Source: an uncultured Bacilli bacterium (GTDB taxonomy: Bacteria > Bacillota_I > Bacilli_A > RFN20 > CAG-826). From it: a stretch of DNA of 64,000 bases. The position numbers and the translations under genes were made by a program. Positions 4,958 through 54,433 of this stretch are shown piece after piece (within the stretch, counting starts at the first letter, position 1; every line of letters starts with the position of its first letter). The notes beneath the pieces were generated by a model that saw nothing but the letters and a program-made list of their open reading frames with translations, searched no databases and was not told the origin of the DNA. The DNA lies in the NCBI GenBank assembly GCA_944349595.1, contig CALVNF010000002.1, positions 175,468-239,467 on the forward strand. The letters run 5' to 3'.

Positions 4958-7526
4958 AATAATAATTATAGATGGCTATTCGATACTATTTAGAGCATAT
5001 TATGCAACGGCATATAAAGGCGAAGATACAATTTTAAAAACTTCTACTGGAATTCCAATTAATGCCATTTTTACTTTTTCAAATATGGTACTTCCACTTT
5101 TATCTAATTTAAATAAAAACGATACTATTTTTGTTGCACTTGATAGTGGAAAAGAAACAAAAAGACATAAAGAATTTGCTGAATATAAGGCAAATAGACC
5201 TTCATGTCCTGAATCTTTAAAAATTCAAATGCCAATTTTAAGAGAACTTTTAGAAGCATTTAATATTCCTTTTTTTGAACAAGAAGGTGATGAAGCTGAT
5301 GATATTGCTGGTAGTGTTGCCAAAATGTCAAATGAACACAATTATAATGTTGAAATTTATACTAGTGATAAAGATTATCTACAATTAGTCAATAATAAAA
5401 CTTCAATATCTTTAATAAAAAAAGGCATGAAAGACATTCAAAAAGTAAATTTTGACAACTTTTATAACTTATACGACATGTTTCCAGAACAAATTAAAGA
5501 TTATAAAGGTTTAAGAGGGGATTCAAGTGATAATTTAAAAGGAATTCCTGGAATTGGAGAAAAAACTGCAATTACATTATTAAAAAAATATAATAATTTA
5601 GAAAATATCATTAATAATGCTCAAGAAATTGGCGGAAAATTATCACTTAAAATTATTGAAAATAAAGATAGTGGCATTTTATGTAAAAAATTAGCAACAA
5701 TTGATGTGGATTTGAATTTACCATTCAATTTTGAAGATATTTTATTTAAAGGAATTGATTTTAAAAAAGCAACGAACTTTTTAAATAAATATGAAATGAA
5801 AAGCTTAGTTAATAAAATTTCTAATATTGAAACAGAAATCACAAAACATGAAATAATAGAAAATTTTAATTTTGAAGAAGTAAATAATATTCCGGAGATT
5901 AATGACAAAGAAATTGGAATTTCTTTAAATTATGATTATACTTCAAATTACCACAACTGCGATATTTCAGGGTTTTTTATATCAACAAAAAACGCGAATT
6001 ATTATATTAAATATGATAATGCGATTTTAGATAAAAACTTTAAAAATATTTTACAAAATAGCGATATTAAAAAAGACTGTTTTAATTATAAAGCAATTGG
6101 ATATATATTAAAAAAGAATAATATAAATTTAAATGGAATAAATTGTGACTTATTATTATGTTCTTATTTATTAAATTCAAACAATTCTAGTGATGTTAAA
6201 ACAACCTTTTTATTTTTTGATAAGACTGATATAGATCCAAAAATTGATCAATTTAATTCATCGTTAAAAATTTCAATATATTCAAGACTTTTAAGCAATA
6301 AAATTCTTGATGATTTAAAAAATAAAGATGATTTTAATTTATATGAAAATATTGAGTTACCACTTTCTAAATGTTTATTAAATATGGAATATGAAGGATT
6401 TCCATTAAATAAACAAACATTATTAAATATTGCAAAAAATTATCAAGACAAACTAGATATATTAACTCACGATATTTATCAACTTGCTGGATGTGAATTT
6501 AATATCGATTCCCCAAAACAAGTTAGTAATTTATTATTTAATGTTTTACAATTAAAATCTAATAGAAAGTCGTCAACTTCTATTGATTATTTAAAATATT
6601 TAGTTGATGAACATCCTATAGTTGAAAAAATTTTGTCTTATCGAAAATATGCAAAATTATTAAACACTTATGTAAATGGTTTATTAAACTATATTGGAAA
6701 AGATAATAAAATTCATTGTATCTTTAACCAAGCTCAAACAACTACTGGAAGATTATCATCTAGTGAGCCAAATATGCAAAATATTGCCGTTAGAGATGAA
6801 GAATCAAAAGAAATTAGGAAAGCATTCTTCTATGATAATGATTTATATTACATATTATCTTATGATTATTCTCAAATTGAATTAAGAATTTTAGCTTCTC
6901 TGTCAAAATGTAAAAATTTAATAGATGCTTTTAATTCAAACATCGATATACATACCTTAACTGCTCAAAAAATATTTAATAAATTGGAAATTAACGAGCA
7001 AGAAAGAAGAAAGGCAAAAGCTGTCAATTTTGGAATAGTATATGGAATTTCTGATTACGGATTAAAAGAGCAAATTAATGTACCATTAAAAGAAGCAAAA
7101 GAAATAATAAATAAGTTTTATGAAACTTATCCAGAAATTAAAACATATATGCAAAATCAAATTGAATTTGCTACAAAAAATGGATATGTAAAAACAATAT
7201 TTAATAGAAAAAGATTTATTGAAGAAATAAATTCCCCTAATTATAGTAAAAGAGAATTTGCAAAAAGGGCCGCTTGTAATGCGCCAATTCAAGGCAGCGC
7301 TGCCGATATTATAAAAATTATAATGACTAAAATTGACAAATTACTTAAAAATTATGACTCAAAATTAGTTCTTCAAATTCATGATGAACTAATATTTAAA
7401 ATTAATAAAAATGAACTTGAAGAATTAAAAACAAAAATCAAAGACATCATGGAAAATACAATTAAATTAGATGTCAAATTAACAGTTGATGGAGGATATG
7501 CCAAAGATTGGTATAGTGTGAAATAA
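4950..7526 (+). CDS. polA: DNA polymerase I (5'-3' exonuclease + polymerase)
   Basis: Starts MNKIIIIDGYSILFRAYYA (5'-nuclease), with a Pol A-family polymerase C-terminus (RRKAKAVNFGIVYG, ...QIHDELIF). The ATG at 4950 is chosen over the upstream in-frame ATG at 4896, which would overlap the dnaE 3' end. Confidence 0.9.
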   Translation: MNKIIIIDGYSILFRAYYATAYKGEDTILKTSTGIPINAIFTFSNMVLPLLSNLNKNDTIFVALDSGKETKRHKEFAEYKANRPSCPESLKIQMPILRELLEAFNIPFFEQEGDEADDIAGSVAKMSNEHNYNVEIYTSDKDYLQLVNNKTSISLIKKGMKDIQKVNFDNFYNLYDMFPEQIKDYKGLRGDSSDNLKGIPGIGEKTAITLLKKYNNLENIINNAQEIGGKLSLKIIENKDSGILCKKLATIDVDLNLPFNFEDILFKGIDFKKATNFLNKYEMKSLVNKISNIETEITKHEIIENFNFEEVNNIPEINDKEIGISLNYDYTSNYHNCDISGFFISTKNANYYIKYDNAILDKNFKNILQNSDIKKDCFNYKAIGYILKKNNINLNGINCDLLLCSYLLNSNNSSDVKTTFLFFDKTDIDPKIDQFNSSLKISIYSRLLSNKILDDLKNKDDFNLYENIELPLSKCLLNMEYEGFPLNKQTLLNIAKNYQDKLDILTHDIYQLAGCEFNIDSPKQVSNLLFNVLQLKSNRKSSTSIDYLKYLVDEHPIVEKILSYRKYAKLLNTYVNGLLNYIGKDNKIHCIFNQAQTTTGRLSSSEPNMQNIAVRDEESKEIRKAFFYDNDLYYILSYDYSQIELRILASLSKCKNLIDAFNSNIDIHTLTAQKIFNKLEINEQERRKAKAVNFGIVYGISDYGLKEQINVPLKEAKEIINKFYETYPEIKTYMQNQIEFATKNGYVKTIFNRKRFIEEINSPNYSKREFAKRAACNAPIQGSAADIIKIIMTKIDKLLKNYDSKLVLQIHDELIFKINKNELEELKTKIKDIMENTIKLDVKLTVDGGYAKDWYSVK

Positions 7527-8929
7527 TGCCAGAATTACCAGAGGTTAGAACCGTTGTTGCCATATTAAATAATGAAGTTATTGGCAAAAAAATTAAAAAT
7601 GTAGAAATTATTTATGAGAGAATTGTCCAAAATGATTTAAATTTTTTTAAAGATGAATTAAAAGATCAAAGTATTATAAAAGTTGAAGCATTAGGAAAAT
7701 TTATCATATTTCATTTAACAAATAATCTTATTTTAATTTCACATTTAAGAATGGAAGGTAAATATTCTTTACTTAACAAAGATGAAAAAAATCCTCCTCA
7801 CTCTTGTGTAATTTTTTATTTTTATGATAATACAAAACTTGTTTATCACGATACAAGAAAATTTGGAATAATGGAATTAAAAACAACTTATAATTATTTA
7901 ACTTCAAAACCACTTTCTAATCTTGGACCAGAACCTTTTAAAATAGATGAAAATAATATTGAAAATATCTATAAAAAAATAACTAAAAATAAACCAATAA
8001 AAGAATTATTAATGGATCAAAGTATTATTTGTGGTATTGGCAATATTTATGCAGATGAAATATTATTTAAAGCAAAAATTAATCCTCTAACAAAAGGAAA
8101 AGATATTTCTTTTGAAAAATTTAAAGAAATTGTCTCAATATCAAAATCTACTCTAACAAAAGCAATAAATTTAGGTGGCTCAACTATTAAATCTTACCAT
8201 CCAAAAGATGGAATTGATGGAAAATTTCAAAACGAACTAGTTTGTTATGGACATTATGGAAAACCTTGTCCAAATTGTGGGACTTTATTTCATAAAATAT
8301 TTTTAAATGGTCGAGGAACTACTTTTTGCCCAAATTGTCAAATAAATTATGAACTAAAAAAAGCAGTTGGAATAACTGGAATTATAGGTTCAGGAAAAAG
8401 TGAATGCTTAGAAATATTTAATGAACTCGGTTTTAAAACGCTTTCTTGTGATAAAATTATAAAAAATTTATACGAAAATAATGATGAATTAAAACAAAAA
8501 ATTAATAAATTATTTTTTTATAAGGCACTAGATAAAAACAAAAATAAATTAAATTATTCAATTATGAGACAATTTATTTCTCAAGATGAAATTTTGCATG
8601 AAAATTTGGAAAATTTGGTATTTCCATTTGTTGAAGATGTTTTAATTAATGAAATTAAAAATTCAAATTATACTCTTATAATTGAAGTTCCACTCCTTTT
8701 TAAGGCGCATTTGCAGTATCTTTTTAAAAAGATAATATATGTAGAATCTAATAAAGAAACAATATTAGAAAGGTTAAAATTAAGAGGTTCAAAAAATCCA
8801 TTAGCAGACTATGAACTTTATTTAAAGAATAATAACTTTAAAATTTCTGATAATGTAATTATTTTAAAAAATAATTCAGATCTTAATAGCTTAAAAGAAC
8901 AAATAATAAAAATTAGTAAAGACCTTTAA
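7526..8929 (+). CDS. Formamidopyrimidine-DNA glycosylase (Fpg/MutM) fused in frame to dephospho-CoA kinase (CoaE)
   Basis: N-terminal MPELPEVRT and the zinc finger CPNCG...CPNCQ (~aa 1-275), then AVGITGIIGSGKSECLEIFNELGF..SCDKI, the CoaE P-loop and fold. This is one continuous 467-aa ORF. Confidence 0.8.
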   Translation: MPELPEVRTVVAILNNEVIGKKIKNVEIIYERIVQNDLNFFKDELKDQSIIKVEALGKFIIFHLTNNLILISHLRMEGKYSLLNKDEKNPPHSCVIFYFYDNTKLVYHDTRKFGIMELKTTYNYLTSKPLSNLGPEPFKIDENNIENIYKKITKNKPIKELLMDQSIICGIGNIYADEILFKAKINPLTKGKDISFEKFKEIVSISKSTLTKAINLGGSTIKSYHPKDGIDGKFQNELVCYGHYGKPCPNCGTLFHKIFLNGRGTTFCPNCQINYELKKAVGITGIIGSGKSECLEIFNELGFKTLSCDKIIKNLYENNDELKQKINKLFFYKALDKNKNKLNYSIMRQFISQDEILHENLENLVFPFVEDVLINEIKNSNYTLIIEVPLLFKAHLQYLFKKIIYVESNKETILERLKLRGSKNPLADYELYLKNNNFKISDNVIILKNNSDLNSLKEQIIKISKDL

Positions 8930-9836
8930 TTCCATCGATTTTCATCTCTTTAAATGTATTTTTAAATACATTTATGAGAGATTTATTTTTTAATGATTTA
9001 TAATCTTTGGTTGAAAAACTATTTATAGTATTTTCAATATCATAATCGCTGATAATAATTGTTAATAATCCATTTTTAATTCTTTCATTTAATATAGGAA
9101 TTAAGATTGTATCTCTTTTATAATCATTAAACGAACAATATGAAAAATTATCTAACACTAAAACTGAACAAGTTTTATATTCTTTTAATAAATCATTAAA
9201 TTTAATTTTGTCAATAAATGATAAGTCATTCAATTCTTGAATTCTTGATACACAATCTGCATATATACCATTAATTTTATTTTCCATTAAATATTCATTA
9301 AAAAATTTACTAACAAGAAAAGATTTACCACTTTTTTTGTCACCATATATAAAATAAAATTTATTTCCTTTTTTCTTTTTAACAACTTTAAAAAATTCTG
9401 TTATTACATTTAGTTTTGTACCTGAACAATCATCAAAAGTTGATTTTTTTAAATCGCTTAAATCAAATTGAATATCATTAATTAAAAATAAGGAATTTCT
9501 TAATGATATCTCTTTATAGAATTTACAAAAGTCATACTCTAAATAAATTGTTTTATTTTCATATTTTAAAATTGGGCAAAACCACATATTTTTTAATTTA
9601 CAACTATTAAAATCTCTGCAATTCTTACATATTTTTGTTTCATTATCATAATTGATAAACAAATTAATATTTTTTGCAACTTCAAAATTGGATATATTAT
9701 TTTCTTCTATAAAATTAATTATATCTTCATTTTTTAAAGCTTTATTAACAATATCTTGATTAGATTCTTGTTTATCGTTTAATTTAGATAAAAATTCATT
9801 ATCAATTAATTTAACAATTTCTTCACTCTTCATCAT
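8913..9836 (-). CDS. dnaI: Primosomal helicase-loader DnaI-like AAA+ protein
   Basis: 307 aa. N-terminal Cys-rich Zn-binding region (CKNCRDFNSC...CPIL), C-terminal Walker A GDKKSGKSF in an IstB/DnaC-like domain. It is co-oriented with and overlaps the upstream DnaB-like gene, as in the Bacillus dnaB-dnaI pair. Confidence 0.6.
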   Translation of the reverse strand: MMKSEEIVKLIDNEFLSKLNDKQESNQDIVNKALKNEDIINFIEENNISNFEVAKNINLFINYDNETKICKNCRDFNSCKLKNMWFCPILKYENKTIYLEYDFCKFYKEISLRNSLFLINDIQFDLSDLKKSTFDDCSGTKLNVITEFFKVVKKKKGNKFYFIYGDKKSGKSFLVSKFFNEYLMENKINGIYADCVSRIQELNDLSFIDKIKFNDLLKEYKTCSVLVLDNFSYCSFNDYKRDTILIPILNERIKNGLLTIIISDYDIENTINSFSTKDYKSLKNKSLINVFKNTFKEMKIDGIKGLY

Positions 9837-11082
9837 TTAATGCCTTCAATATTTCTTCAGTTGTATATATTTTTTTATCATCAATGTCTGTATCTTTTTT
9901 ATTTGTTTTATCAATAGATTTGTTTAAAATTTTTTTGTCAATATTTAACGTGTTATTTTTATTATTTTCAGAATTTAGTTTCTGTAAGAACATGATCGAA
10001 TCATATGCGCTATTTATATCATTTCTTAATAAAGTTGCGCCTATTTTTTCCATGAAATTTAAGTTAAGCAAGCCTTTATTTTTTTCTAAAGTATAGTCAA
10101 CAATTGCATTAATAACTCCATTTGCCAAACCTAAATCTAATTTCAATTTTTCCAATATTTTTAAATCAGAATGTATTGGATTAACATTATTCTGTTTTAT
10201 TTTTAAATAGTTATAAGGATCTAGTTTTTCCATATAATCAATTTTTTTAGATAAATCAGTTGAACTTGAAATCTTATATTTCTTTGTTTTTTGTTTTTTA
10301 ATATTTGCAAAAACAATTGAATCATAGCACTTACTTTTTACTAAATCTAAATCGATTTTTTTATCTTTTGAATAAAAATCAATGCAATTCATGACTATAT
10401 CAGCCATTAAAATTTCAGATAATCCATATAGATTAGCTAATTTTGCAAAATATTTAAGTTCTTCTTTTGTAAAGAAGTCATCTTTTAATTTATACTTTTC
10501 TTGAATTATTTTTTTAAAATAATCATAATCAAAATTCATTGGAGAATCTTTTGTTTTAACTTGCAAAAGAAACTCATTATTTTCTGGATTATAATCAAAA
10601 TCATTTGAATCTACATCAACATCAAATACTTCATCAAAGCGTGATGTTATTTCTTTAAAATTAGTTCTGTCAATTTTATTTGAAAATTCTTTTTTAATTT
10701 GTTCAACTTTATTTGAACCAATCGATCTTACTAATAATCCTTTTAATAAAACATCATCAAAAAAATTAATTGGGGATTTTGGAGAATAAACAACTTCTAA
10801 TAAAACATTGTCTTTAACATAACTTTTGATTAAACCTACTGCTTCTAATATTTTTCTTGCATTATTAAAATCATCTAAATTAAATTTTAAAGACATTAAT
10901 AAATTACTTAATTCATTTTCTTTTTCATTTAAATGAATTTTATATGTGTATAAAAAATATAAGCTTAAAGCATTACATCCAATTATTGGTAAATATAATT
11001 TTGCAATAATCATTTCGCCTATGTTAGATAAGATAGAATTTGTATCTAATTTTATTAAAAAATCTTCATTAATTTTTTCCAT
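9823..11082 (-). CDS. Replication initiation / membrane attachment protein (B. subtilis DnaB / DnaD-domain family)
   Basis: 419 aa. Gene position immediately 5' of dnaI. The DnaD-like C-terminal region is weakly recognisable only. Confidence 0.45.
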   Translation of the reverse strand: MEKINEDFLIKLDTNSILSNIGEMIIAKLYLPIIGCNALSLYFLYTYKIHLNEKENELSNLLMSLKFNLDDFNNARKILEAVGLIKSYVKDNVLLEVVYSPKSPINFFDDVLLKGLLVRSIGSNKVEQIKKEFSNKIDRTNFKEITSRFDEVFDVDVDSNDFDYNPENNEFLLQVKTKDSPMNFDYDYFKKIIQEKYKLKDDFFTKEELKYFAKLANLYGLSEILMADIVMNCIDFYSKDKKIDLDLVKSKCYDSIVFANIKKQKTKKYKISSSTDLSKKIDYMEKLDPYNYLKIKQNNVNPIHSDLKILEKLKLDLGLANGVINAIVDYTLEKNKGLLNLNFMEKIGATLLRNDINSAYDSIMFLQKLNSENNKNNTLNIDKKILNKSIDKTNKKDTDIDDKKIYTTEEILKALNDEE

Positions 11083-14465: not shown

Positions 14466-14493
14466 TTTTATACTATATTATAATAATTGTGCG
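14466..14493 (+). promoter_or_regulatory. Sigma-A type promoter for thrS leader (TTGATT-N16-TATAAT)
   Basis: -35 TTGATT at 14466-14471 and -10 TATAAT at 14488-14493, upstream of the T-box leader. Confidence 0.45.
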
Positions 14494-14499
14494 TTGAAA

Positions 14500-14712
14500 A
14501 AGACATGATTATATATTGATTCAACACAGCGATTAAGAGTTTGGTGAAAGTCTTAAATGATAAATATATAATTACCACTTTGGAGCATCAAAAGTAATTT
14601 TGTCGTAACGCTTGCGTTAAAAGCATGATGAGAGCCAATAATTTTGTTGGAATTAAGGTGGTAACACGGAAAAAATTTCGCCCTTATGTAATATTACATA
14701 AGGGTTTTTATA
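14500..14712 (+). ncRNA. T-box riboswitch leader (threonine specifier ACC) with intrinsic terminator
   Basis: Conserved T-box sequence AATTAAGGTGGTAACACGG at 14651-14669. Terminator hairpin CCCTTATGTAAT/ATTACATAAGGG plus U-tract at 14681-14712. Candidate specifier ACC-A at 14574-14577. It lies immediately 5' of thrS. Confidence 0.7.
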
Positions 14713-14727
14713 TTTTGGAGGAAAATT

Positions 14728-16647
14728 ATGAAAGTATTTGTAAAAAATCAACCATTTGAATTTGAAAATCAAGTAAATGGTTTTCAAGTTGCAAAAAGCT
14801 TTGATCAAGAGCATCATAAAAACATAATTGCTTATAAGAAAAATAATCAATTATTTGATATGTCAACTTTATTGAATGATGGAGATGAAATTGAATTTAT
14901 TTATAAAGGCGATGATGATAAAGTTGCATTTGAAATATTAAATCACTCTACTTCTCATTTAATGGCTGAAGCAATTTTAAAATTATTCCCTGATGCAAAA
15001 TTAGGATTTGGTCCAGCAATTGATGAAGGATTTTATTATGATGTTGATTTTAATGACTATCAATTAAAAGAGGAAGATTTAGCTAAAATTGAATCTTTAA
15101 TGAAAAAATTAGCTAAAGAAAATAATAATTTCAAAAGACAAGTTGTTAGTAAGCAAGAAGCATTAGAAATATTTAAAAACGATCCATATAAAATTGAATT
15201 AATAAATGGAATCAATGATGAAATCACAATTTATACTCAAGGAAGTTTTACTGATTTATGTCATGGAATCCATTTACCAAACACATCTTATATTAGAAAC
15301 TTCAAACTTTTAAGTATCGCTGGTGCTTATTGGAGAGGCGATATCAAAAATAAACAATTAACAAGAATTTATGGTATTTCTTTTTATGAACAAGAAAATT
15401 TAAATAAATACTTATTAATGTTAGAAGAAAGAAAAAAGAGAGATCATCGTAAACTTGGAAAAGAATTAGGTTTATTTATGATTTCTGAATATGGACCAGG
15501 TTTTCCGTTCTGGCTTCCAAATGGCATGATTTTAAGAAGAGAATTGGAAAATTTCTGGTATGATTATCATCAAAAACACGGTTATGTTTTTTGTAAAACT
15601 CCAACAATGTTATCTAAAGAATTGTGGATAATTTCTGGCCACTGGGATAATTATAAAGATAATATGTACACTTCAACAATTGATGGAAAAGAATTTGCAA
15701 TTAAACCAATGAATTGTCCAGGTGGCATGTTAATTTATAAAAATTCTATCCACTCTTATAAAGATTTACCAATAAGACTTGGTGAATTAGGATTAGTTCA
15801 TAGACACGAAGCAAGCGGCGCTTTAAATGGTTTATTTAGAGTTCGTACATTTACTCAAGATGATGCTCATATTTTTATTAGAAAAGATCAATTGATTGAT
15901 GAAATTTCTAATTTATTAAAGATTTTTGATGATATTTATTCTGTTTTTGGTCTTGAATATCACATTGAATTATCAACAAGACCAGAAAAGAAATACATTG
16001 GAGATATTGAAATTTGGAATGAATCCGAAAAAATTCTTTCTGAAGCTTGTAAAAAATCAAATAAAAAATTCATTATTAATGAGGGTGATGGTGCTTTTTA
16101 TGGACCAAAACTTGACTTTAAATTAAAAGATTCAATGAATAGAATTTGGCAATGCGGTACAATTCAACTTGATATGAACTTACCAGAAAGATTTGATTTA
16201 ACTTATATTGATGAACATGGTGAAAAAGTAAGACCAATTATGCTCCATAGAGCCGTTTTAGGTTCAATTGAAAGATTTATTGGAATAATAACTGAAAACT
16301 TTGCTGGTGCATTCCCAACATGGTTAGCTCCAGTTCAAGTTAGTATCTTAACTGTTAATAACGAACACCACTTACAATATGCATTGAAGGTAAAAGAAGA
16401 ATTGGAAAAAGAAAATATTAGAGTTATACTAGATGATTCTAATGAAAAACTTGGATATAAATTAAGAAATTCACAAATTAAAAAAATACCTTACACTATT
16501 GTAATTGGCGACAATGAAAGAGATAATCAAAAAGTAACATATCGTGTTTATTCTCAAAAAGATGAAATTACAATTCCATTAAGCGAATTTGTAAATAAAG
16601 TTAAAGAAGATATTACATCAAAAAAATTACCAAAAGACAGAAAATAA
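14728..16647 (+). CDS. thrS: Threonyl-tRNA synthetase
   Basis: 639 aa. TGS, second-site editing domain and class II catalytic core, and anticodon-binding domain. A T-box leader lies upstream. Confidence 0.9.
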   Translation: MKVFVKNQPFEFENQVNGFQVAKSFDQEHHKNIIAYKKNNQLFDMSTLLNDGDEIEFIYKGDDDKVAFEILNHSTSHLMAEAILKLFPDAKLGFGPAIDEGFYYDVDFNDYQLKEEDLAKIESLMKKLAKENNNFKRQVVSKQEALEIFKNDPYKIELINGINDEITIYTQGSFTDLCHGIHLPNTSYIRNFKLLSIAGAYWRGDIKNKQLTRIYGISFYEQENLNKYLLMLEERKKRDHRKLGKELGLFMISEYGPGFPFWLPNGMILRRELENFWYDYHQKHGYVFCKTPTMLSKELWIISGHWDNYKDNMYTSTIDGKEFAIKPMNCPGGMLIYKNSIHSYKDLPIRLGELGLVHRHEASGALNGLFRVRTFTQDDAHIFIRKDQLIDEISNLLKIFDDIYSVFGLEYHIELSTRPEKKYIGDIEIWNESEKILSEACKKSNKKFIINEGDGAFYGPKLDFKLKDSMNRIWQCGTIQLDMNLPERFDLTYIDEHGEKVRPIMLHRAVLGSIERFIGIITENFAGAFPTWLAPVQVSILTVNNEHHLQYALKVKEELEKENIRVILDDSNEKLGYKLRNSQIKKIPYTIVIGDNERDNQKVTYRVYSQKDEITIPLSEFVNKVKEDITSKKLPKDRK

Positions 16648-27950: not shown

Positions 27951-28005
27951 TAAAATTACCTTAAAATAAAAAAAGTTGATATAAACATCAACCTAACTTT
28001 TCAAA

Positions 28006-28081
28006 TGGTGGGCGCTAAGGGAATCGGACCCATGACCTTCTGTACGTCAAACAGATGCTCTCCCAACTGAGCTAAACGCCC
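28006..28081 (-). tRNA. tRNA-Val (anticodon GAC), with a non-canonical T-loop (C at position 55)
   Basis: Reverse complement folds as a cloverleaf. Acceptor stem GGGCGTT/AGCGCCC, D-arm GCTCAGTTGGGAGAGC, anticodon loop TTGACGT, and CCA encoded. The T-loop reads TCCGATT. Confidence 0.55.
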
Positions 28082-28270
28082 ACGTACAAAATATAATACT
28101 TTAATTAAGAAAAAATTTCAACAATAAAATTACTTATTGTAAAAATATCAATCAGTAAAAATAATATTGATGGGGGTAAAATTAAATTAACCAAAAAGGT
28201 GAAAATAACATTTACCATTTTATGGAATATTCTATAATTTTCCAAAAGGAGTAATTACGGAATTAAATTG

Positions 28271-28754
28271 AATATTCTAACGCTTCGGAGCCACCAGTTT
28301 AAAGCTTGTGAGCCATACCCTATTTAACTAATAATTTTGACCTTGAGAGCCATCTTTAAATTATATCCCCTAAAATATTTTTACTTGAGTTTTTATTGAC
28401 TAATTTCAACCATAATTCAGGAAAATATTTTATATAATATTTTTTAAGACGCACAATTGTTCAACTTTTAAAACTTTAAATTCATATAAAAAAACATTAT
28501 TTTTAGTATTATTTAAATAAGGTGGATATGATTTTAGCTAATGTACGTTTTATATTTAAATAAATACAATATTAGTAATAAGAAATATTAAAATAAATTT
28601 TTTTAATTAATTGACAAAATATAGAAAGAAATTTTTAACGATTTATTTTATGAATTTATTTAAAAATGTAGATGCTCCGAAACTCTAAATCGCTAATTAA
28701 AGTGGGTATGGCTCTCAAGCTCTAAACTGAGGCCTCCCAAGCACTAGAATATTC
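28271..28754. mobile_element. ~484-bp non-coding element bounded by 51-bp imperfect inverted repeats (MITE-like or structured RNA)
   Basis: The left repeat at 28271-28321 and the reverse complement of 28704-28754 match at ~43 of 51 positions. The interior is ~380 bp of AT-rich sequence with no ORF. It lies in a 0.9-kb ORF-free gap between tRNA-Val and tRNA-Leu. Confidence 0.4.
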
Positions 28755-28939
28755 ACTTATAAGAGCAACAAATATTAATACTATACATAATTTTTTTAAT
28801 ACTAATTCTTTAGAAGAATTTAAAACGAAATTCATTTCTTCTAAGAATTTAAAAAATAAGCTCATTTCTTTAGAATTTGATATAAATAAAATGTGGAATA
28901 CAAAATCTACCTTGCATTGTATTCAAAGTTCGCCTAAAG

Positions 28940-29069
28940 AAATTATTAAAAGTTGACAGTTTTTAAAGTCTAAATAAAGTTGACAACACTGTCAACATAA
29001 AAATTAAATAACCCCCAAATAACCCCCAAGCAACAAAAAAAGCCGATAAAATCGGCATTATTTATTAAT
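28940..29069. repeat. tRNA-trailing conserved element, copy A
   Basis: Compared with 44433-44561: TTGACA..N27..TTGACAnnnnTGTCAA palindrome, ATAAAAAT, (AAATAACCCCC)x2, and the hairpin AAAAAAAGCCGATAAAATCGGC. The hairpin is a rho-independent terminator for the minus-strand tRNA-Leu. Confidence 0.6.
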
Positions 29070-29156
29070 TGGTGCTCGAAGAGGGACTTGAACCCTCATG
29101 AGTTTAACCTCGATGGATTTTGAGTCCATTGCGTCTACCAGTTCCACCATTCGAGC
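29070..29156 (-). tRNA. tRNA-Leu (anticodon CAA), class II with long variable arm
   Basis: Reverse complement: acceptor GCTCGAA/TTCGAGC, anticodon loop CTCAAAA, T-arm GAGGGTTCAAGTCCCTC, and CCA encoded. Confidence 0.8.
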
Positions 29157-29165
29157 GCTCTAATA

Positions 29166-43804: not shown

Positions 43805-44072
43805 GTTAAATTCCTTTTACTCAACTATTATACCTTATTACTTTTGACTATTCTTTAAAATTTAATAACTAAAAAATTATCAAACCATTTTTTAATTAAT
43901 AAAAATTTATTATCTAATATCAATAAAATGAAAGGGCATTCTTAAATATGATTAAAATATTTCTCTTTTCTATTTTTATTTTTCAAGTTATATATATTCA
44001 TGTAAATTTCTTTTAACAACTGTATCTTCCTATTTACAATAATATAGCCTTATGTAATACTATAAATAAGAA

Positions 44073-44141
44073 AAGCACAGCCTGATGGGTGTAGGTCTGC
44101 AATTGTAAGACTGCCATTGACAGGAGTGCTTTTTTTGTTAA
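44073..44141. terminator. Extended nested hairpin followed by T7 (bidirectional terminator-like structured element) in an ORF-free 630-bp region
   Basis: AAAAGCAC-AG-CCTG-[ATGG..GGTCT-loop-AGACT..CCAT]-CAGG-AG-GTGC-TTTTTTT, with an A-tract on the 5' side. Confidence 0.35.
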
Positions 44142-44432
44142 TAAATAGTTGTAATAATAAGATTATTTAAAATAATGCTCATAAATCCAACACTTGATAG
44201 TAATTTTTTTAATATTTATAAATTCTATTATTTTTGAGAGTAAAATTTACCATCTTAAATTAATTATTTAATATAAGAGATCGTTCCACAGACTATTATA
44301 TGAATTTTTAATTTATAATTTCTTCTAAACTTGATTAAAATAGCAAACGCTTGAACATTTAATTGTTCACGTCCAAATATTAACAATGATATAGATTATA
44401 CTTTAATATTAAAGTTATTAAAAATGATTAAT

Positions 44433-44561
44433 ATTGACACTTTGTAATCATTAAAGAACTTTGACACCTGTGTCACCATAAAAATCAAATAACCCCAAAA
44501 TAACCCCCAAATAACACCCAAATAACAAAAAAAGCCGATAAAATCGGCGTTTTATATCATT
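44433..44561. repeat. tRNA-trailing conserved element, copy B (three tandem AAATAACCCC-type units)
   Basis: Homologous to 28940-29069. Contains TTGACAcctgTGTCA, ATAAAAAT, (AAATAACCCC / AAATAACCCCC / AAATAACACCC), and the AAAAAAAGCCGATAAAATCGGC hairpin that terminates tRNA-Gly. Confidence 0.6.
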
Positions 44562-44635
44562 TGGAGCACCATGCGAGAATCGAACTCGTATCATTGGCTT
44601 GGGAAGCCAAGGTTCTACCATTGAACTAATGATGC
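44562..44635 (-). tRNA. tRNA-Gly (anticodon CCC), 4-nt variable loop
   Basis: Reverse complement: acceptor GCATCAT/ATGGTGC (one G.U wobble), D-arm GTTCAATGGTAGAAC, anticodon stem TTGGC/GCCAA with loop TTCCCAA, T-loop TTCGATT, discriminator T, and CCA encoded. Confidence 0.6.
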
Positions 44636-44715: not shown

Positions 44716-45348
44716 ATGGAAGAAAATAATAAAGAAAAAATTTTACAAGAAGCAGAAAACAGCGATAAAGAAATTGATGATAGAATAGAATTAACAAGAA
44801 AACAACGTTTCGCAAATAAAGTTCATCCTAATGGTTCTCTTATTTTAATGTTTGTAATTATAATTTTATTAGGTGTTGCTATTGGTACAATTTATTTGGA
44901 TAATTTTGTAAAAGTCAGTATGTGTTTGTTTATTGTTTCTTGTTTGCTTGTTATATTATCTTATAATTTTTTAAAATTTTATAATATTTCATATTTGTTA
45001 CTTATTTTTATATTATCTATTTATTCTTTAATAGCTACTTATGCATTTAATAATAATGATTTATTATACCAGGCTCCAATATTATGTTTCTTATTTAATA
45101 TTATATTAGTAAGTGGAAAATTTCTTGATTTAAAAAAGGTTTCAAATAAAAAGTTTAATATTGCTTCATTTATCATATTACTATTATTATTAATTTCAAA
45201 TATTGTATTAATTAGTTTATTTTCATTAATCAATTATAAATTATTAACACTCGTTTTAATGTGTTTAAACTTAGTTTTTATAATATATAATTTAGTTTAT
45301 TTAATAATTTTTAGTAATAAAATTGTAAGTTTAACTTCAAAAAACTAA
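44716..45348 (+). CDS. Hypothetical polytopic membrane protein
   Basis: Acidic N-terminal cytoplasmic segment followed by ~5 hydrophobic helices. No recognisable motif. Confidence 0.35.
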   Translation: MEENNKEKILQEAENSDKEIDDRIELTRKQRFANKVHPNGSLILMFVIIILLGVAIGTIYLDNFVKVSMCLFIVSCLLVILSYNFLKFYNISYLLLIFILSIYSLIATYAFNNNDLLYQAPILCFLFNIILVSGKFLDLKKVSNKKFNIASFIILLLLLISNIVLISLFSLINYKLLTLVLMCLNLVFIIYNLVYLIIFSNKIVSLTSKN

Positions 45349-46129: not shown

Positions 46130-46212
46130 ATTGTTTCTTCCTTCTTAAGTTTTTCACATAGAATATTTTAAATTAAAAAATATCGATTTTAAACCGATAT
46201 TGATATATTTTA

Positions 46213-46288
46213 TGGTGCCTACTAACGGTTTCGAACCATTGACCTACTCATTACGAATGAGTTGCTCTACCAGCTGAGCTAAGTAGGC
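46213..46288 (-). tRNA. tRNA-Thr (anticodon CGT)
   Basis: Reverse complement: GCCTACTTAGCTCAGCTGGTAGAGC...anticodon loop TTCGTAA...GGTTCGAAACC...AGTAGGCACCA. Confidence 0.8.
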
Positions 46289-46353
46289 ATTTTGTTATGT
46301 TAATAAACATAAAACGCCATTATTTTGCAATAATGGCGTTGTAATTTTTAAAT

Positions 46354-46430
46354 TGGTGACCCGTACGGGATTCAAACCCATGAATGCATGCGTGAAAGGC
46401 ATGTGAGTTAAGTCACTTCTCCAACGGGCC
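46354..46430 (-). tRNA. tRNA-Glu (anticodon TTC)
   Basis: Reverse complement: GGCCCGTTGG...CTTTCAC...GGGTTTGAATCCCGTACGGGTCACCA, which closely resembles Bacillus tRNA-Glu. Confidence 0.85.
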
Positions 46431-46438
46431 GCAAAGAA

Positions 46439-46514
46439 TGGCGCCTACTGAGGGACTCGAACCCACGACCGATCGGTTAACAGCCGATTGCTCTACCGAC
46501 TGAGCTAAGTAGGC
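46439..46514 (-). tRNA. tRNA-Asn (anticodon GTT)
   Basis: Reverse complement: GCCTACTTAGCTCAGTCGGTAGAGC, anticodon loop CTGTTAA, GTGGGTTCGAGTCCCTC, and AGTAGGCGCCA. Confidence 0.85.
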
Positions 46515-46532
46515 ATCCAAACGTGCTTAATT

Positions 46533-46561
46533 ATTATATTTTACAAGCACATTAATTGCAA
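46533..46561 (-). promoter_or_regulatory. Promoter for the tRNA Asn-Glu-Thr cluster (TTGCAA-N17-TATAAT)
   Basis: Minus strand: -35 TTGCAA at 46556-46561, a 17-nt spacer, and -10 TATAAT at 46533-46538, about 19 nt upstream of the tRNA-Asn 5' end. Confidence 0.5.
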
Positions 46562-46564
46562 GAA

Positions 46565-50143: not shown

Positions 50144-50486
50144 TATAAAGACCTACAATTACTGATCTTTTTATTGACAATGAGTTCAAATTATTTAAGA
50201 AAAATAATGGTTTAATTTCGCTGACCAATTCAAACTCAAGTCTTTCACCTACGATTGATGTATCATTAATTATATTTATATGAATTAATGAACTTTGTTT
50301 TTCAATGTATTGATTTACTTCATCTAGTGCTCTTGTCCCTCCTCTCATTGAAAATATATTACAAATCGTTGACGAAATTGCATCTAAATTAACATAGTCG
50401 GCTTGTATAACAATTAAATCTATAAAAAATAATGCGCAAATAAAGAAAATAAATAATGAAAGTAAACTACCTAATTTAGAACCCAC
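50127..50486 (-). CDS. TadE-like / pseudopilin-like membrane-anchored protein
   Basis: 119 aa. N-terminal hydrophobic helix (LLSLFIFFICALFFIDLIV) then a small extracellular domain. Overlaps its neighbours, consistent with an operon. Confidence 0.35.
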   Translation of the reverse strand: MGSKLGSLLSLFIFFICALFFIDLIVIQADYVNLDAISSTICNIFSMRGGTRALDEVNQYIEKQSSLIHINIINDTSIVGERLEFELVSEIKPLFFLNNLNSLSIKRSVIVGLYNGEFR

Positions 50487-51147
50487 TTATAACACTCCCC
50501 ATTAAATTAATAACACCGACTATAATTGCTAATATAAAAATAGCTCCGCCAACCAAAGAATAATTTGCCTTTGATAAAAGATTTTGTTTTTTTCTTTCTT
50601 CTTGTTCTTTTTGATTATTTTCTAAAATTTTGTCAAATAAATAGATAAAAGAATTAATATGTTTTGTATCCGATAATGAATCATTCATTTCATAAATCGA
50701 TAACATTAATTGATCAATAATTTCTCTATTAAAATTTTTTGCAAAATTTAAATACGGAACAACCGATTTATCATTATCAATTTGTGATAACATTATTTTT
50801 ATTTTTTCAGATAATTCATTTGATGAATATTTTAATATCTCGTTAAAAGCTTGATATATATTAAATCCTGCTTCTAAATAAATTCTAAAATATATCAGAG
50901 AATTGATAAAATCATTAAATAATCGATTCTCTTTTGCTTTTTTTGAGGATTCATATAAGAAATACATTATAACTGGGGTAATTAATAATAAAACTGAACT
51001 AACAATTATATATATTATATTTTTATATAGAAAAGATAATCCTACTCCAGCTGTTAAAAGAATTAATTCAATAATTAATATTTTTAATATTTCTTTTTTG
51101 TAATTTTTACCAATTGCTTCAAAATAATCTTTAATTTTTTCCATCAT
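50476..51147 (-). CDS. TadC/TadB-like (T2SS-F-type) inner-membrane platform protein
   Basis: 223 aa. N-terminal TM pair, a ~120-aa cytoplasmic helical domain, and a C-terminal TM segment (GspF-like topology). Confidence 0.4.
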   Translation of the reverse strand: MMEKIKDYFEAIGKNYKKEILKILIIELILLTAGVGLSFLYKNIIYIIVSSVLLLITPVIMYFLYESSKKAKENRLFNDFINSLIYFRIYLEAGFNIYQAFNEILKYSSNELSEKIKIMLSQIDNDKSVVPYLNFAKNFNREIIDQLMLSIYEMNDSLSDTKHINSFIYLFDKILENNQKEQEERKKQNLLSKANYSLVGGAIFILAIIVGVINLMGSVISGF

Positions 51148-51842
51148 AATTTGTACTCCATGATATAATCTGTTTTATAAAGTCTTTTCATATATAAATA
51201 TAAACTGACAATATAGAATAAAAACCCACAAAAACTAATTATTTTAAAATACAAGCTTTCAATAATCTCACTTGTAAAATTTCCTAATGATAATTTAGCA
51301 ACGAGTAAAATTAAAAACGCAAATAACCACATTGATATAAACGAAAATAAATAACTCACAGATTCTTTTTCAGTTTTTATATTTAAATATGAGAGTCTTT
51401 TTGTTTCATTTAATAAATTTTTTGAAATATTTAAGAAATTTCCACCAACATCTTCAAATATTTTTAAACATTGTTTAAAAATATTAAATATATTAAAAGT
51501 GTAATGTTTATCTAAAAAATATAGCAGATCTTCACTATTTTTATTGTTTTCATCAAAATTTTCTAATGTCTTTTTATTTAATTTTTTCTTTGCATTATTC
51601 AGTGCCGCTGTTGTTGAATCAACAAAATTAAAGCTAATTATTGTATTTTCAATAAAATTACAGCATTCAGAAAATCTACTTATTTTATATGTGTATTTTT
51701 TGTCAATAAAGTAAATAAATATTAAATAGGATAAACTAATTCCACAAAATAAAATAACAAAAATAAGATCTGGAATTATATAACATATTATTAATGTCGA
51801 TATTAAAATTGACATTATGTTTAGTATAAAATTTTTGCTCAT
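51144..51842 (-). CDS. TadB/TadC-like (T2SS-F-type) inner-membrane platform protein
   Basis: 232 aa. N-terminal TM helices, a cytoplasmic domain, and C-terminal TM helices. Sits immediately 3' of the ATPase. Confidence 0.4.
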   Translation of the reverse strand: MSKNFILNIMSILISTLIICYIIPDLIFVILFCGISLSYLIFIYFIDKKYTYKISRFSECCNFIENTIISFNFVDSTTAALNNAKKKLNKKTLENFDENNKNSEDLLYFLDKHYTFNIFNIFKQCLKIFEDVGGNFLNISKNLLNETKRLSYLNIKTEKESVSYLFSFISMWLFAFLILLVAKLSLGNFTSEIIESLYFKIISFCGFLFYIVSLYLYMKRLYKTDYIMEYKL

Positions 51843-51850
51843 ATTAACTC

Positions 51851-52861
51851 CTAATTAACCTGTAATTGAAATCCTTTAAACGCAGAATATGCTTCTGGGA
51901 GTTTAAAAAATTTTCTTACACCTTTTTCTTCTTTGTATATTTTTTTATAATCTTTCCCATCTGATATTAAAATTTCATTTATATATCTTTTAACTCGACC
52001 ATTTGTGAATTCTTTTTTTACACCAATTAAAACATTTATATTTTCGTAAATATCTTGTTCAAAAATATTCATGTTAATATCATTTTTTTGAAGTAAAAAT
52101 TTGATTCTTGATACTAAACTTAAACCAGTTTTTGCATGCATGGTTGTTATTGTAGAGATACCCGTTAAAAGAGAATTATAAACATCTAAAAATTCATCAC
52201 CTCTTGCTTCTGCTAAAATTAAATAATCTGGATTAAGTCTTAAGCTTGTTTTAATTAAGTTATTAACATTACAAAATCGTGATTTTTCTGGAATCATTAT
52301 TGATATATCAGAATTCTTATAATCAAGATCCAGTTCATTAATAGTATCAATAATTACAAGCCTCTCATTATTTTCAAACATTTTTAATAAATATTTTTGA
52401 AATTCAGTTTTTCCGCTTGATGGTTCTCCATAAATAATAATTGAAAGTTTATTTTTTAAGATAAATTTAAAAAATTCATACAATTTTTCGTCAAAGAAGT
52501 CATTATTATTGGTGATTCTAATTTCTTTTGAAAATTTACGGATTGAGAAAATCAGTCTTTTATTTCCATATTTTTTAGAAATCGATTCATGAACAACGTT
52601 TAATCTAATATTTAAAAAAGAAACATCAACAATTGGATTTGAAATTGAAAAATTAATATCTAAAAAATTTGTTATATCTTTAATTAAATTTCTTATTTCA
52701 TCGTACTCGACTTTTTTATCATATAATTGTCTGCCTTTAAAGTTATCTAAATAATAAATTTTTTCACCATTATAAGATATATCAGTTATTGAATCAATAT
52801 TTAAAAGCTCTGCAAAACAGCTATTATTTAATCTATCAATTACTTTTTCAATCATTTCCAT
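51851..52861 (-). CDS. TadA/CpaF/VirB11-family secretion ATPase
   Basis: Walker A GEPSSGKTE, VIIDTINEL, Asp/Arg box LRLNPDYLILAEARGDEF, and His box TITTMHAKTG. These are co-linear with CpaF motifs (GGTGSGKTT / VTIEDAAEL / RMRPDRIILGEVRGPEA / TLHANTP). 336 aa. Confidence 0.7.
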   Translation of the reverse strand: MEMIEKVIDRLNNSCFAELLNIDSITDISYNGEKIYYLDNFKGRQLYDKKVEYDEIRNLIKDITNFLDINFSISNPIVDVSFLNIRLNVVHESISKKYGNKRLIFSIRKFSKEIRITNNNDFFDEKLYEFFKFILKNKLSIIIYGEPSSGKTEFQKYLLKMFENNERLVIIDTINELDLDYKNSDISIMIPEKSRFCNVNNLIKTSLRLNPDYLILAEARGDEFLDVYNSLLTGISTITTMHAKTGLSLVSRIKFLLQKNDINMNIFEQDIYENINVLIGVKKEFTNGRVKRYINEILISDGKDYKKIYKEEKGVRKFFKLPEAYSAFKGFQLQVN

Positions 52862-53224: not shown

Positions 53225-54433
53225 TTAAACAATAAACACCTCATTGTACTTATTATCACCAGTATTAAATTGTCCATTTAAATAATATTCATTTTTGTGA
53301 TTAAAATATAATTCTTTTCTAAATCCTATTTTTTCATTTGAACAAGATATATAGAATTTATCTAAAGAAATGCTAGGTCTACAATACATCCATCTATATC
53401 CTTTGTAAGAATTTAAATTATTTGCAAAATATATTGCATCTGAAATTTTATACCCGGTTTTTAAATATCTATTTACATCTTTTTCTAATACATTAACCAT
53501 ATAAGATGGATTGTCACTATAATGCATTTTTACTTTACCATCAGTGACTATATCTTCTAAAACCATGTATCCGTCTTTATAAATATAGCTATAATCGTAA
53601 TGTCCACCTATATCACTGCTACCGCATTGAGCATCATAACCAGTAAAACGACAACTAATTGTATCTTCGTTAAATTTAATATTTAGACACATTTTTAAAG
53701 ATGTTTTAACATCTCTATAATGCGAACTTCTCACACATTTTGAATTGAGTTTTGAATCTAATATTGGATTTTCTGGATCATTATCCGTATATCGATACTT
53801 ATAACAACTATAATCAACTTTACCATAATATAAATCGTGTATGTCATTATATCGTAATGTTGAAAAATCATACACTTGAATTAAATTTGTAAATCTTCCA
53901 TTTAAAATTACTGGAACTCCCCGCTCATATTCAAATATTTTTTGTGTTAATAAATCATCTTGATTAATATGTAATGTTGTTGAATCTTTAAATTCAGAAT
54001 TATATAAGCTTATAAATCCATCATTAACACCATCATTAAATCTAAAATCAATGAAATCTTCACTTTTATCAAAATAAAATTCGCAAGTTGCTTGATATTT
54101 TCGACTTATAGAAGACATTCGTGAAGGTAAATCAACTTTAAAAATTCCGCCTTTTGTTTCGACTTCAAAAGATACTTTAATAGCATTTCTAACTAAAGGT
54201 GTATAACTAAATTTTATTTTATAATAATAATGAGGTTGATAACTTGATGGTTGTCCATACTGATGATAAACAATTTCGGTTCTATCAAATTCCATAACAA
54301 AATCTTCTATTTTGTATTCGTCTTGATAAATATAAGTTCCATCTTCTATTTTATTATTATTTATACCAGCGCTTGTTAAAAATAAAAATGATAAAACTGA
54401 AAATAAAACTAAACTACCCTTTGATACTTTCAT
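53225..54433 (-). CDS. Secreted Tyr/Asp/Cys-rich protein of unknown function
   Basis: 402 aa. N-terminal signal peptide (MKVSKGSLVLFSVLSFLFLTSAG). No known motif. Lies in the same operon as the Tad-like genes. Confidence 0.35.
   Translation of the reverse strand: MKVSKGSLVLFSVLSFLFLTSAGINNNKIEDGTYIYQDEYKIEDFVMEFDRTEIVYHQYGQPSSYQPHYYYKIKFSYTPLVRNAIKVSFEVETKGGIFKVDLPSRMSSISRKYQATCEFYFDKSEDFIDFRFNDGVNDGFISLYNSEFKDSTTLHINQDDLLTQKIFEYERGVPVILNGRFTNLIQVYDFSTLRYNDIHDLYYGKVDYSCYKYRYTDNDPENPILDSKLNSKCVRSSHYRDVKTSLKMCLNIKFNEDTISCRFTGYDAQCGSSDIGGHYDYSYIYKDGYMVLEDIVTDGKVKMHYSDNPSYMVNVLEKDVNRYLKTGYKISDAIYFANNLNSYKGYRWMYCRPSISLDKFYISCSNEKIGFRKELYFNHKNEYYLNGQFNTGDNKYNEVFIV

Follow-up and report, generated by a model that had tools for sequence, protein, structure and literature searches.

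Correia/NEMIS of Neisseria, ERIC/IRU of enterobacteria and RUP of Streptococcus pneumoniae are bacterial MITEs built as long imperfect palindromes. They are small (100–160 bp) and non-coding, have terminal inverted repeats that would form a long hairpin if transcribed, lie between genes or in junk DNA, vary in occurrence among strains, and number from tens to hundreds in a genome, with duplication of TA or a similar target. Mu, Tn7-like and IS21-family elements have multi-site ends with 5'-TG...CA-3' tips, duplicate 4–8 bp of their target, encode transposases of the MuA, TnsB or IstA type, and are known to cause adjacent deletions. Long palindromes are also known to be unstable. Prophages and islands that target tRNA genes begin at the 3' end of the tRNA gene, and some large bacterial RNAs, such as ROOL and GOLLD, occur in prophages and in the neighbourhood of tRNA genes.

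The segment 28269-28755 of the window (the whole 64-kb stretch of DNA that was analysed) is probably, at a rough probability of 0.6, a non-autonomous, non-coding element of the MITE type that spreads by horizontal transfer among gut-type bacteria of low G+C content and whose site in the window is what remains of a decayed island integrated at the 3' end of tRNA-Leu(CAA). The first-pass annotation had already proposed a MITE-like mobile element, and this proposal stands in part. The discrete ends, the unrelated contexts of the copies, the 80–89% identity between them, the strain variation, the gene truncations at the tips and the conserved repeats fit a mobile element, whereas the lack of a target-site duplication, a second copy, an autonomous parent element and a clean empty site, together with the low copy number, stands against it. 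The element is like Correia/NEMIS, ERIC/IRU and RUP in its small size, its lack of coding capacity, its terminal inverted repeats, its position in DNA between genes and its variation among strains, and it may likewise depend on a transposase supplied in trans. Unlike them, it is 487 bp long with a conserved 265-bp centre, was seen in only one copy per sampled genome, is flanked by no duplication and has no known parent IS.

The interval 27951-29165 (1215 nt) is free of ORFs of at least 62 aa on either strand and is the largest such stretch in the window, in which the median gap is 61 nt and the G+C content is 24%. The window belongs to a metagenomic scaffold of 264 kb from a Bacilli-like organism. 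The description of an ORF-free gap flanked by tRNA-Val and tRNA-Leu genes is borne out, since ARAGORN finds both tRNA genes and the longest ORF between them is 47 aa. The element accounts for this largest non-coding gap of the window without the need for a new RNA gene. The features of the interval are listed in Table 1.

Table 1. Features in and around the gap between the two tRNA genes (positions in the window).
Feature	Position	Strand	Basis or remark
tRNA-Val(GAC)	28006-28081	-	ARAGORN; upstream region to 28168 common to all strains
Block of strain-variable DNA	28169-29066	.	898 bp; blastn against L017, L027, L029, L030
DNA between the element and the DNA common to other strains	28169-28268	.	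100 bp; contains TGGAATATTCTA
Element, non-coding	28269-28755	+	487 bp; starts TGAATATTCTA, ends TAGAATATTCA
Left inverted-repeat arm	28269-28379	+	Repeat search, arm alignment, six-arm nhmmer profile
Repeat L1, TTCTAACGCTTCGGAGCCAC	28275-28294	+	Direct-repeat family; conserved in L019
Repeat L2, GTTTAAAGCTTGTGAGCCAT	28297-28316	+	22 nt after L1
Repeat L3, TTTTGACCTTGAGAGCCAT	28335-28353	+	Direct-repeat family, arm profile
AT-rich centre	28380-28643	.	90% identical to L019, 76% to L021; no conserved ORF
Right inverted-repeat arm	28644-28755	-	Repeat search, arm alignment, six-arm nhmmer profile
Repeat R3, ATTTAGAGTTTCGGAGCAT	28672-28690	-	Direct-repeat family, arm profile
Repeat R2, GTTTAGAGCTTGAGAGCCAT	28708-28727	-	Direct-repeat family, arm profile
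Repeat R1, TTCTAGTGCTTGGGAGGCCT	28730-28749	-	Read from sequence, arm alignment
Truncated 3' remnant of AbiLii-like gene	28756-28956	+	About the last 66 codons and the stop codon
TTGACA-N17-TAGACT string	28967-28996	-	At 28995-28967; scan scores promoter-like and terminator-like
Two tandem GGGGGTTATTT units	29006-29027	-	Read from sequence; other strains have three
Intrinsic-terminator-like hairpin 3' of tRNA-Leu	29042-29056	-	Terminator scan
tRNA-Leu(CAA)	29070-29156	-	ARAGORN; integration hotspot

The boundaries of the element were derived from two other copies, one in L019, a MAG of an uncultured bacterium with a G+C content of 29.5%, and one in L021, a human-gut metagenome contig. The plus orientation of the element is the orientation common to these two copies, and the bounds given at first, 28271-28754, fall short of it by 2 nt at the left end and by 1 nt at the right. 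The terminal inverted repeat is real and longer than the 51 bp claimed for it: the ungapped arms 28266-28350 and 28674-28758 are 85 nt long and 76% complementary, and a gapped alignment extends the imperfect arms to about 110 nt each. All six arms of the three copies begin with the same 11 nt, the tips are 5'-TG...CA-3' (TGAATATTC...GAATATTCA) in every copy, and the blocks TGAATATTCTA, CAGTTTA and GAGCCATACCC are common to the six arms. Between the window and L019 the arms and the centre are about equally conserved, with identities by segment of 90%, 90% and 85%. Conservation of the centre is patchy, with variable patches at about 28445-28462 and 28535-28555, and this pattern hints at a function that may go beyond that of the ends. 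The element falls within the size range of MITEs (less than about 600 bp, without coding capacity). Its longest ORF, of 32 aa at 28356-28454 on the minus strand, contains a stop codon in L019 (alignment read by eye), and this stop codon together with indels in L021 rules out a small conserved protein encoded in the centre.

Each arm contains three direct repeats of about 20 bp at offsets of 7, 29 and 66 from the tip, so that their spacing is an uneven 22 and 37 nt, and the repeats of all six arms follow the consensus kTTTArrGCTTswGAGCCAy. The left arm of the L021 copy has lost exactly one 22-nt unit between L1 and L2, as would be expected of tandem DNA repeats. Outside the element, TGGAATATTCTA at 28223-28234 resembles an element tip; the repeat search places this tip-like sequence in a family of its own. 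The tips and the arrangement of three unevenly spaced repeats of about 20 bp in ends of about 100 bp are like those of Mu, Tn7-like and IS21 elements, and the position of two of the copies within a few hundred bases of tRNA genes is like that of some Tn7-like and CAST elements. Unlike Mu, Tn7 and IS21, the element has neither a duplication of 4–8 bp nor a gene for a transposase of the TnsB, MuA or IstA type nearby, and the sequence of its repeats, which are putative binding sites, is unrelated to any that could be matched. Three repeats in an arm of 110 bp are unusual for bacterial MITEs and, if the reading as a mobile element is true, point to an undescribed parent transposon.

A 21-base pattern shared by the two arms gave one match among 185,579 species-representative genomes, namely L019, in which positions 6493-6980 align with the full length of the element at 89% identity over 491 bp. 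A 22-base gapped pattern gave one real match in the JGI metagenomes, namely L021, in which positions 36-488 form a third copy about 80% identical to that of the window. The second match of the 22-base pattern, L020, lies inside a coding gene and was set aside as chance. Nine viral matches to an 18-mer (L004-L012), which are single matches with no extended similarity, were also treated as chance, because about 8 chance matches were estimated against the 9 found. All three copies begin with TGAATATTCTA and end with TAGAATATTCA, their flanks are unrelated, and homology stops at the tips. Outside the element, the 8-kb locus of L019 shares with the window only a weakly similar GH3 gene (36% identical in amino acids and about 67% in nucleotides). 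That loci without comparable DNA similarity elsewhere should share an element that is 80–89% identical counts for its mobility as far as the sequences can tell. Because the same 487-bp unit recurs in L019 and L021, chance or local duplication as the origin of the inverted repeat is ruled out.

A profile search of the 64-kb window and about 390 kb of other fetched loci found no second copy and no solo arm. Over these loci and the exact-pattern scans, which gave one true match per collection, one copy was seen per sampled genome; the large pattern scans required an exact match to 18–34 specified bases, so that diverged relatives would escape them. No autonomous partner or longer element with the same ends was found in searches of genome, metagenome, viral, phage and plasmid sequences. 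Blastn searches of phages and plasmids gave no match to the element, nor did five further viral pattern scans, and a phage or plasmid origin was rejected on the grounds that neither method gave a match. No transposase or recombinase domain was found in the 27 window ORFs of at least 150 aa, 8 of which have no Pfam match, or among the called genes of L001 (window about 19,300-40,300), and a transposase encoded in the window was not recognised. Literature searches on the element sequence and on MITEs found nothing relevant. The proposed check for multiple copies and target-site duplications thus gave a divided answer: L019 and L021 contain copies, but none of the three is flanked by a duplication, and the roughly 450 kb examined contain no further copy. 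In its way of working the element resembles a MITE, but we assign it to no named family, since it has no target-site duplication and no known parent and only one copy was seen per sampled genome.

Loci of sister strains were fetched with the neighbouring HI0933-like and GH3 proteins as anchors. The element is present at this site in the window and in an identical Logan contig, L002, only, and it is absent from the site in eight contigs (L017, L027, L029, L030, L034, L037, L032 and L013), the flanks of which are 97–99% identical to the window, or 91% in L013. In L017, L027, L029 and L030, whose flanks are 98–99.6% identical, the tRNA genes are 289 bp apart and an unrelated 199 bp stands in place of window 28169-29066. 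The break falls directly after the CCA end of tRNA-Leu, the right boundary of the 898-bp block being 3 nt past the called 3' end of that gene (29070). L034 and L037 carry an intermediate allele that consists of the terminator, three GGGGGTTAWTT units, the hairpin and about 130 bp. In L032 the site is occupied by a large island that encodes a DUF3800 protein and a PBECR3 protein of 2584 aa. At the distal end of this island (9337-9416, 81 bp), the last 20 nt or so of tRNA-Leu recur with the terminator and the G-rich repeats, as would be expected of attR. L013 is a sister species in which the terminator, the repeats and the hairpin are followed by an AbiLii-like gene, an AbiLi ATPase gene, a tyrosine integrase gene and prophage genes. 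The island of L032 differs from the prophage of L013.

The variable block is thus like tRNA-targeting prophages and islands in that it starts exactly at the CCA end of tRNA-Leu, and sister strains have at this site either a prophage that encodes a tyrosine integrase or a large island whose far end repeats the 3' end of the tRNA. The boundary at the tRNA 3' end and the far-end repeat of L032 mark the 898-bp block, and not the 487-bp unit, as what is left of an att-bounded insertion, and in the window the block is a remnant because the far tRNA repeat is gone there. Unlike the remnant of a tRNA-targeting element, the 487-bp unit has its own boundaries and is found in L019 and L021 away from this site. 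Since the site has these different alleles among strains and the element is found only in the window and L002, the gap appears to be a layered remnant of elements integrated at a tRNA-Leu hotspot, and the element appears to be a separate passenger within the island remnant. The earlier statement that the element is inserted beside tRNA genes can thus be refined, as it lies inside an 898-bp island remnant that begins at the CCA end of tRNA-Leu. The 100 bp at 28169-28268 have no match in any fetched locus.

The other two copies also lie in island-like DNA: that of L021 adjoins PDC-S01 and Schlafen-AlbA_2 genes, and that of L019 adjoins a tRNA cluster with repeat debris. These contexts, together with the AbiL remnant in the window, which belongs to an island adjoining an integrase and a prophage in L013, would suit a module that acts in cis in a plasmid, satellite or integrative element and was inherited as a fragment without moving by itself. 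Such a module could be an iteron-type replication origin, in which the repeats would flank an AT-rich unwinding region, or an attP-like recombination site with arm-type sites. The low copy number agrees with this, as do the AT-rich centre and its six flanking repeats of about 20 bp, two of which are set at a distance of two helical turns. A module of this kind would not explain why the unit ends at the same bases in three contexts with nothing beyond them in common, or why the tips interrupt genes which relatives retain intact. There is no rep or integrase gene beside any copy, an attP that has not recombined should not persist in a chromosome, and the phage, plasmid and viral collections hold no match. 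We consider a cis-acting module unlikely, and the passenger element of the MITE type remains the preferred reading.

The tips of this element coincide with gene truncations at two loci. Between the window and L013, homology extends from tRNA-Leu as far as 28756 and breaks at the right tip (28755/28756). Window 28756-28956 encodes a product 87% identical in amino acids to residues 95-165 of the 165-aa AbiLii-like protein of L013 (tblastn), so that the gene, which is intact in L013, is cut in the window exactly at the right tip of the element. In a PADLOC comparison, the intact gene pair of L013 gave an E-value of 8e-23 for AbiLi and a weak one of 0.006 for AbiLii. Beyond the left tip, the DNA of the window is unrelated to L013. 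In the same manner, L022 and L023, which are 95.3% identical in nucleotides to L019, match it up to 6492, one base before TGAATATTC. Past this point L022 and L023 carry an intact gene for a 533-aa xanthine/uracil permease, of which L019 retains only about the last 26 codons, and the tRNA cluster of L019 lies beyond the other tip. In both the window and L019, therefore, one tip coincides with a gene truncation and the opposite flank comes from elsewhere.

Inspection of the flanks found no target-site duplication (a direct repeat of 2–10 bp) beside any of the three copies. GAATATTC was considered as a palindromic target duplication and was ruled out, since it is missing from the uninterrupted sites of L022 and L013. 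Neither junction comparison gave a clean empty site, since both validated junctions are deletion junctions, and a simple insertion is thus not directly seen. The missing target-site duplications and the unrelated opposite flanks would be explained most simply by adjacent deletions.

These observations are consistent with a mechanism in which the six repeats would be bound by a transposase or recombinase provided in trans. The trans-acting protein would pair both ends and cut at the tips, as at the multi-site ends of Mu, Tn7 and IS21. A truncated gene at one tip with an unrelated flank at the other would then be the trace of an adjacent deletion associated with the element, and such a deletion may have arisen through transposition within one molecule, recombination of one copy with another, or the stimulation of deletion by the palindrome. 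A more specific proposal is that the element is a miniature, trans-mobilised derivative of an undescribed parent of uncultured low-GC gut bacteria that has multi-site ends and resembles Tn7, Mu or IS21, or else a mobile module with a functional RNA or regulatory centre, and that in either case its palindromic ends promote deletions in defence and integration hotspots; stated in this form, the proposal is quite unlikely to be correct. If the reading as a mobile element of the MITE type is true, the element stands for a family of small mobile elements, not described before, in uncultured gut bacteria with very AT-rich DNA. Since two of the three copies lie at exact points of gene truncation and one of the truncated genes is an abortive-infection gene, the element may also cause the loss of genes at hotspots of defence and integration. 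The practical value of this is modest and would be chiefly for transposon specialists, and it opens no major question.

Long terminal inverted repeats may also be read as the stem of an RNA, and a long-stem structured RNA was put forward in the first-pass annotation as an alternative. In this reading, the element would be a large non-coding RNA gene carried as island cargo on the minus strand, as the tRNA genes are, with the arms forming a stem of about 100 bp that closes an AT-rich domain. Like ROOL and GOLLD, the element is about 500 nt long, lies near tRNA genes and island DNA and has a strong predicted fold. Both strands fold far better than shuffled sequences (z-scores of -8.8 and -8.6, equalled by none of 100 shuffles), and the predicted fold of the minus strand is more stable than that of the plus strand (-139.4 against -127.6 kcal/mol). 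Patchy conservation of the centre would also agree with an RNA. Unlike ROOL and GOLLD, however, the element has neither a covariance-model match nor covariation, and it consists of one long inverted repeat instead of several domains. At gathering thresholds, Rfam 15 found only tRNAs and one T-box in the window. Between the tRNA genes at E<=10 the only match was one at chance level (28784-28820, E=6.7), below gathering and outside the element, and over the copies in L019 and L021 nothing was found at E<=1.

Covariation, which had been named as a check should homologues exist, was examined with RNAalifold on the minus strand of the three copies. Among the 75 pairs of the long stem there is no compensatory change; 9 changes on one side keep pairing, and 11 pairs are broken in at least one copy. 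The covariation contribution to the consensus energy is +10.4 kcal/mol, which is unfavourable. In the whole structure of the three sequences, there are 3 double changes against 1.6 in shuffles, and 92 of 500 shuffles reach 3; the whole-structure covariation measures are reached by 32–92 of 500 shuffles, and the count of pair types by 19 of 500. A central helix of 10 bp (alignment columns 169-178 with 386-395) contains two double changes that keep pairing. The arm mismatches compatible with G-U pairing number 10 on the minus strand and 1 on the plus strand in the window, but 7 and 4 in L019 and 3 and 5 in L021, so that the strand bias is confined to the window copy and was discarded as a sign of a minus-strand RNA. 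At arm position 18, the bases are C/G in the window and G/C in L019 and are mismatched in both. L021 lacks 22 nt from one arm only, and the ends, where the flanks of each copy differ, have no conserved promoter or terminator. What is conserved between the copies is the sequence of the repeat motif and not pairing. With the central helix as its sole hint in an alignment of three sequences, the structured-RNA reading is unsupported, and we regard an RNA gene as very unlikely.

As a third alternative to the element of the MITE type, the segment could be a DNA switch, in which a site-specific recombinase acting on the inverted arms would flip a promoter-bearing segment. The inverted repeats do flank a segment in which every copy conserves TTGACA-type hexamers. 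The three copies are collinear, however, and each retains differences specific to one arm (for example at positions 12 and 26 from the tip), which speaks against exchange within the arms. The arms of about 110 bp are also far longer than the repeats of typical invertons. In the neighbourhood of the window copy, there is neither an adjacent recombinase gene nor a downstream gene to regulate, since the neighbours are tRNA genes and tRNA-Val has its own promoter-like site (28121-28093) in the upstream DNA common to all strains. An invertible switch of this kind is highly improbable here.

A promoter-like string pointing into the gap, TTGACA-N17-TAGACT, had been described just after the tRNA-Leu terminator. 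It exists on the minus strand as described, but is found beyond the bounds of the element, where the AbiLii-like remnant has its 3' end, and its bases partly coincide with those of a hairpin, GTTGACAGTGTTGTCAAC, that is followed by a T-run and scored as terminator-like. Since this region recurs in variant forms in L013, L032 and L034, which lack the element, and is missing from the copies of L019 and L021, the promoter-like string belongs to the island remnant and not to the element.

The 3' end of the tRNA-Leu(CAA) gene (29067-29156 in the window) is an integration hotspot within the species complex. Comparison of the window with L013, a contig of the sister species, and with L017, L032 and L034, contigs of other relatives, distinguishes at least five alleles at this end, which are listed in the table together with other features of the window. 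Directly past the tRNA-Leu terminator, GGGGGTTATTT units lie in tandem at 29006-29027 in the window, 7278-7315 in L013 and 9394-9428 in L034, with two copies in the window and three in other strains, and these units might have served the integrase or Xis of the former island as arm sites. The element, a 487-bp MITE-like inverted-repeat unit, is adjoined in the window by an AbiLii-like pseudogene remnant, and in L013 an AbiLi and AbiLii pair (7365-8962) is intact and adjoins an integrase.

Alleles at the tRNA-Leu(CAA) 3' end and other features (window coordinates unless a contig is named)
Feature	Position	Strand	Description
Hotspot allele			Empty; 289 bp to tRNA-Val
Hotspot allele			~250 bp of additional remnant
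Hotspot allele	L013		AbiL pair, integrase and prophage
Hotspot allele	L032		Large island with 2584-aa PBECR3 protein and DUF3800; tRNA 3'-end repeat at its end (from 9337)
Hotspot allele			The window's own
AbiLii-like pseudogene remnant	28756-28956	+	Final ~66 codons
T-box leader	14485-14688	+	98 bits; upstream of 639-aa ORF 14728-16647
ORF-free stretch	43805-44450		Adjoins tRNA-Gly (44562-44635)
ORF-free stretch	46130-46564		Contains tRNA-Thr, tRNA-Glu, tRNA-Asn cluster
Pfam-unmatched ORFs (n=8)	9823-11082, 44716-45348, 50476-51842, 53225-54433, 60771-63932		

Sequences resembling the tip of the element are also seen outside its left end. A near-match, TGGAATATTCTA, to the tip TTGAATATTCTA lies 35 bp beyond the left end in the window (28223-28234), and in L021, a human gut contig carrying another copy, AAATATTC stands immediately against the left tip. 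Both TGGAATATTCTA and AAATATTC could mark a site favoured as a target, or a scar that another copy has left.

In L019, an uncultured-bacterium contig with a further copy, a xanthine/uracil permease gene is cut down to its last ~26 codons (6414-6492) and stops where the left tip of this copy begins; the same gene is intact in 95%-identical relatives (L022 5259-6860). The spacer between this copy and a tRNA-Met gene (L019 6981-7161) contains CTAGTAGA/TCTACTAG repeats and, in the opposite orientation, a T-arm-like fragment, CCGTCGGTTCGAATC, which together may be debris of another tRNA-targeting element. In L021, a GGGTGTGCA/TGCACACC repeat cluster (575-860) separates the element from a Schlafen-AlbA_2 gene, which is followed by a PDC-S01 (AAA_14 + DUF4143) gene. 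The region therefore resembles a defence island.

L013, L015, L022, L025, L032, L034 and L037 have consecutively numbered ENA analysis accessions (ERZ162680xx-ERZ162682xx), and this set includes relatives of both the window organism and the L019 organism. Since the accessions are consecutive, this suggests that the relatives of both organisms come from one study.

Elsewhere in the window, the two tabulated ORF-free stretches are the next in size after the gap holding the element. The T-box leader precedes an ORF whose syntenic position in L017 is taken by a product of 639 aa that bears domains of the ThrRS type (tRNA_SAD, tRNA-synt_2b and HGTP_anticodon). Of the window ORFs, eight with lengths of 210-429 aa match nothing in Pfam at 1e-5. 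A T2SSE-type ATPase gene (51851-52861) has three of the eight on its flanks, and together they may form a competence-pilus operon.
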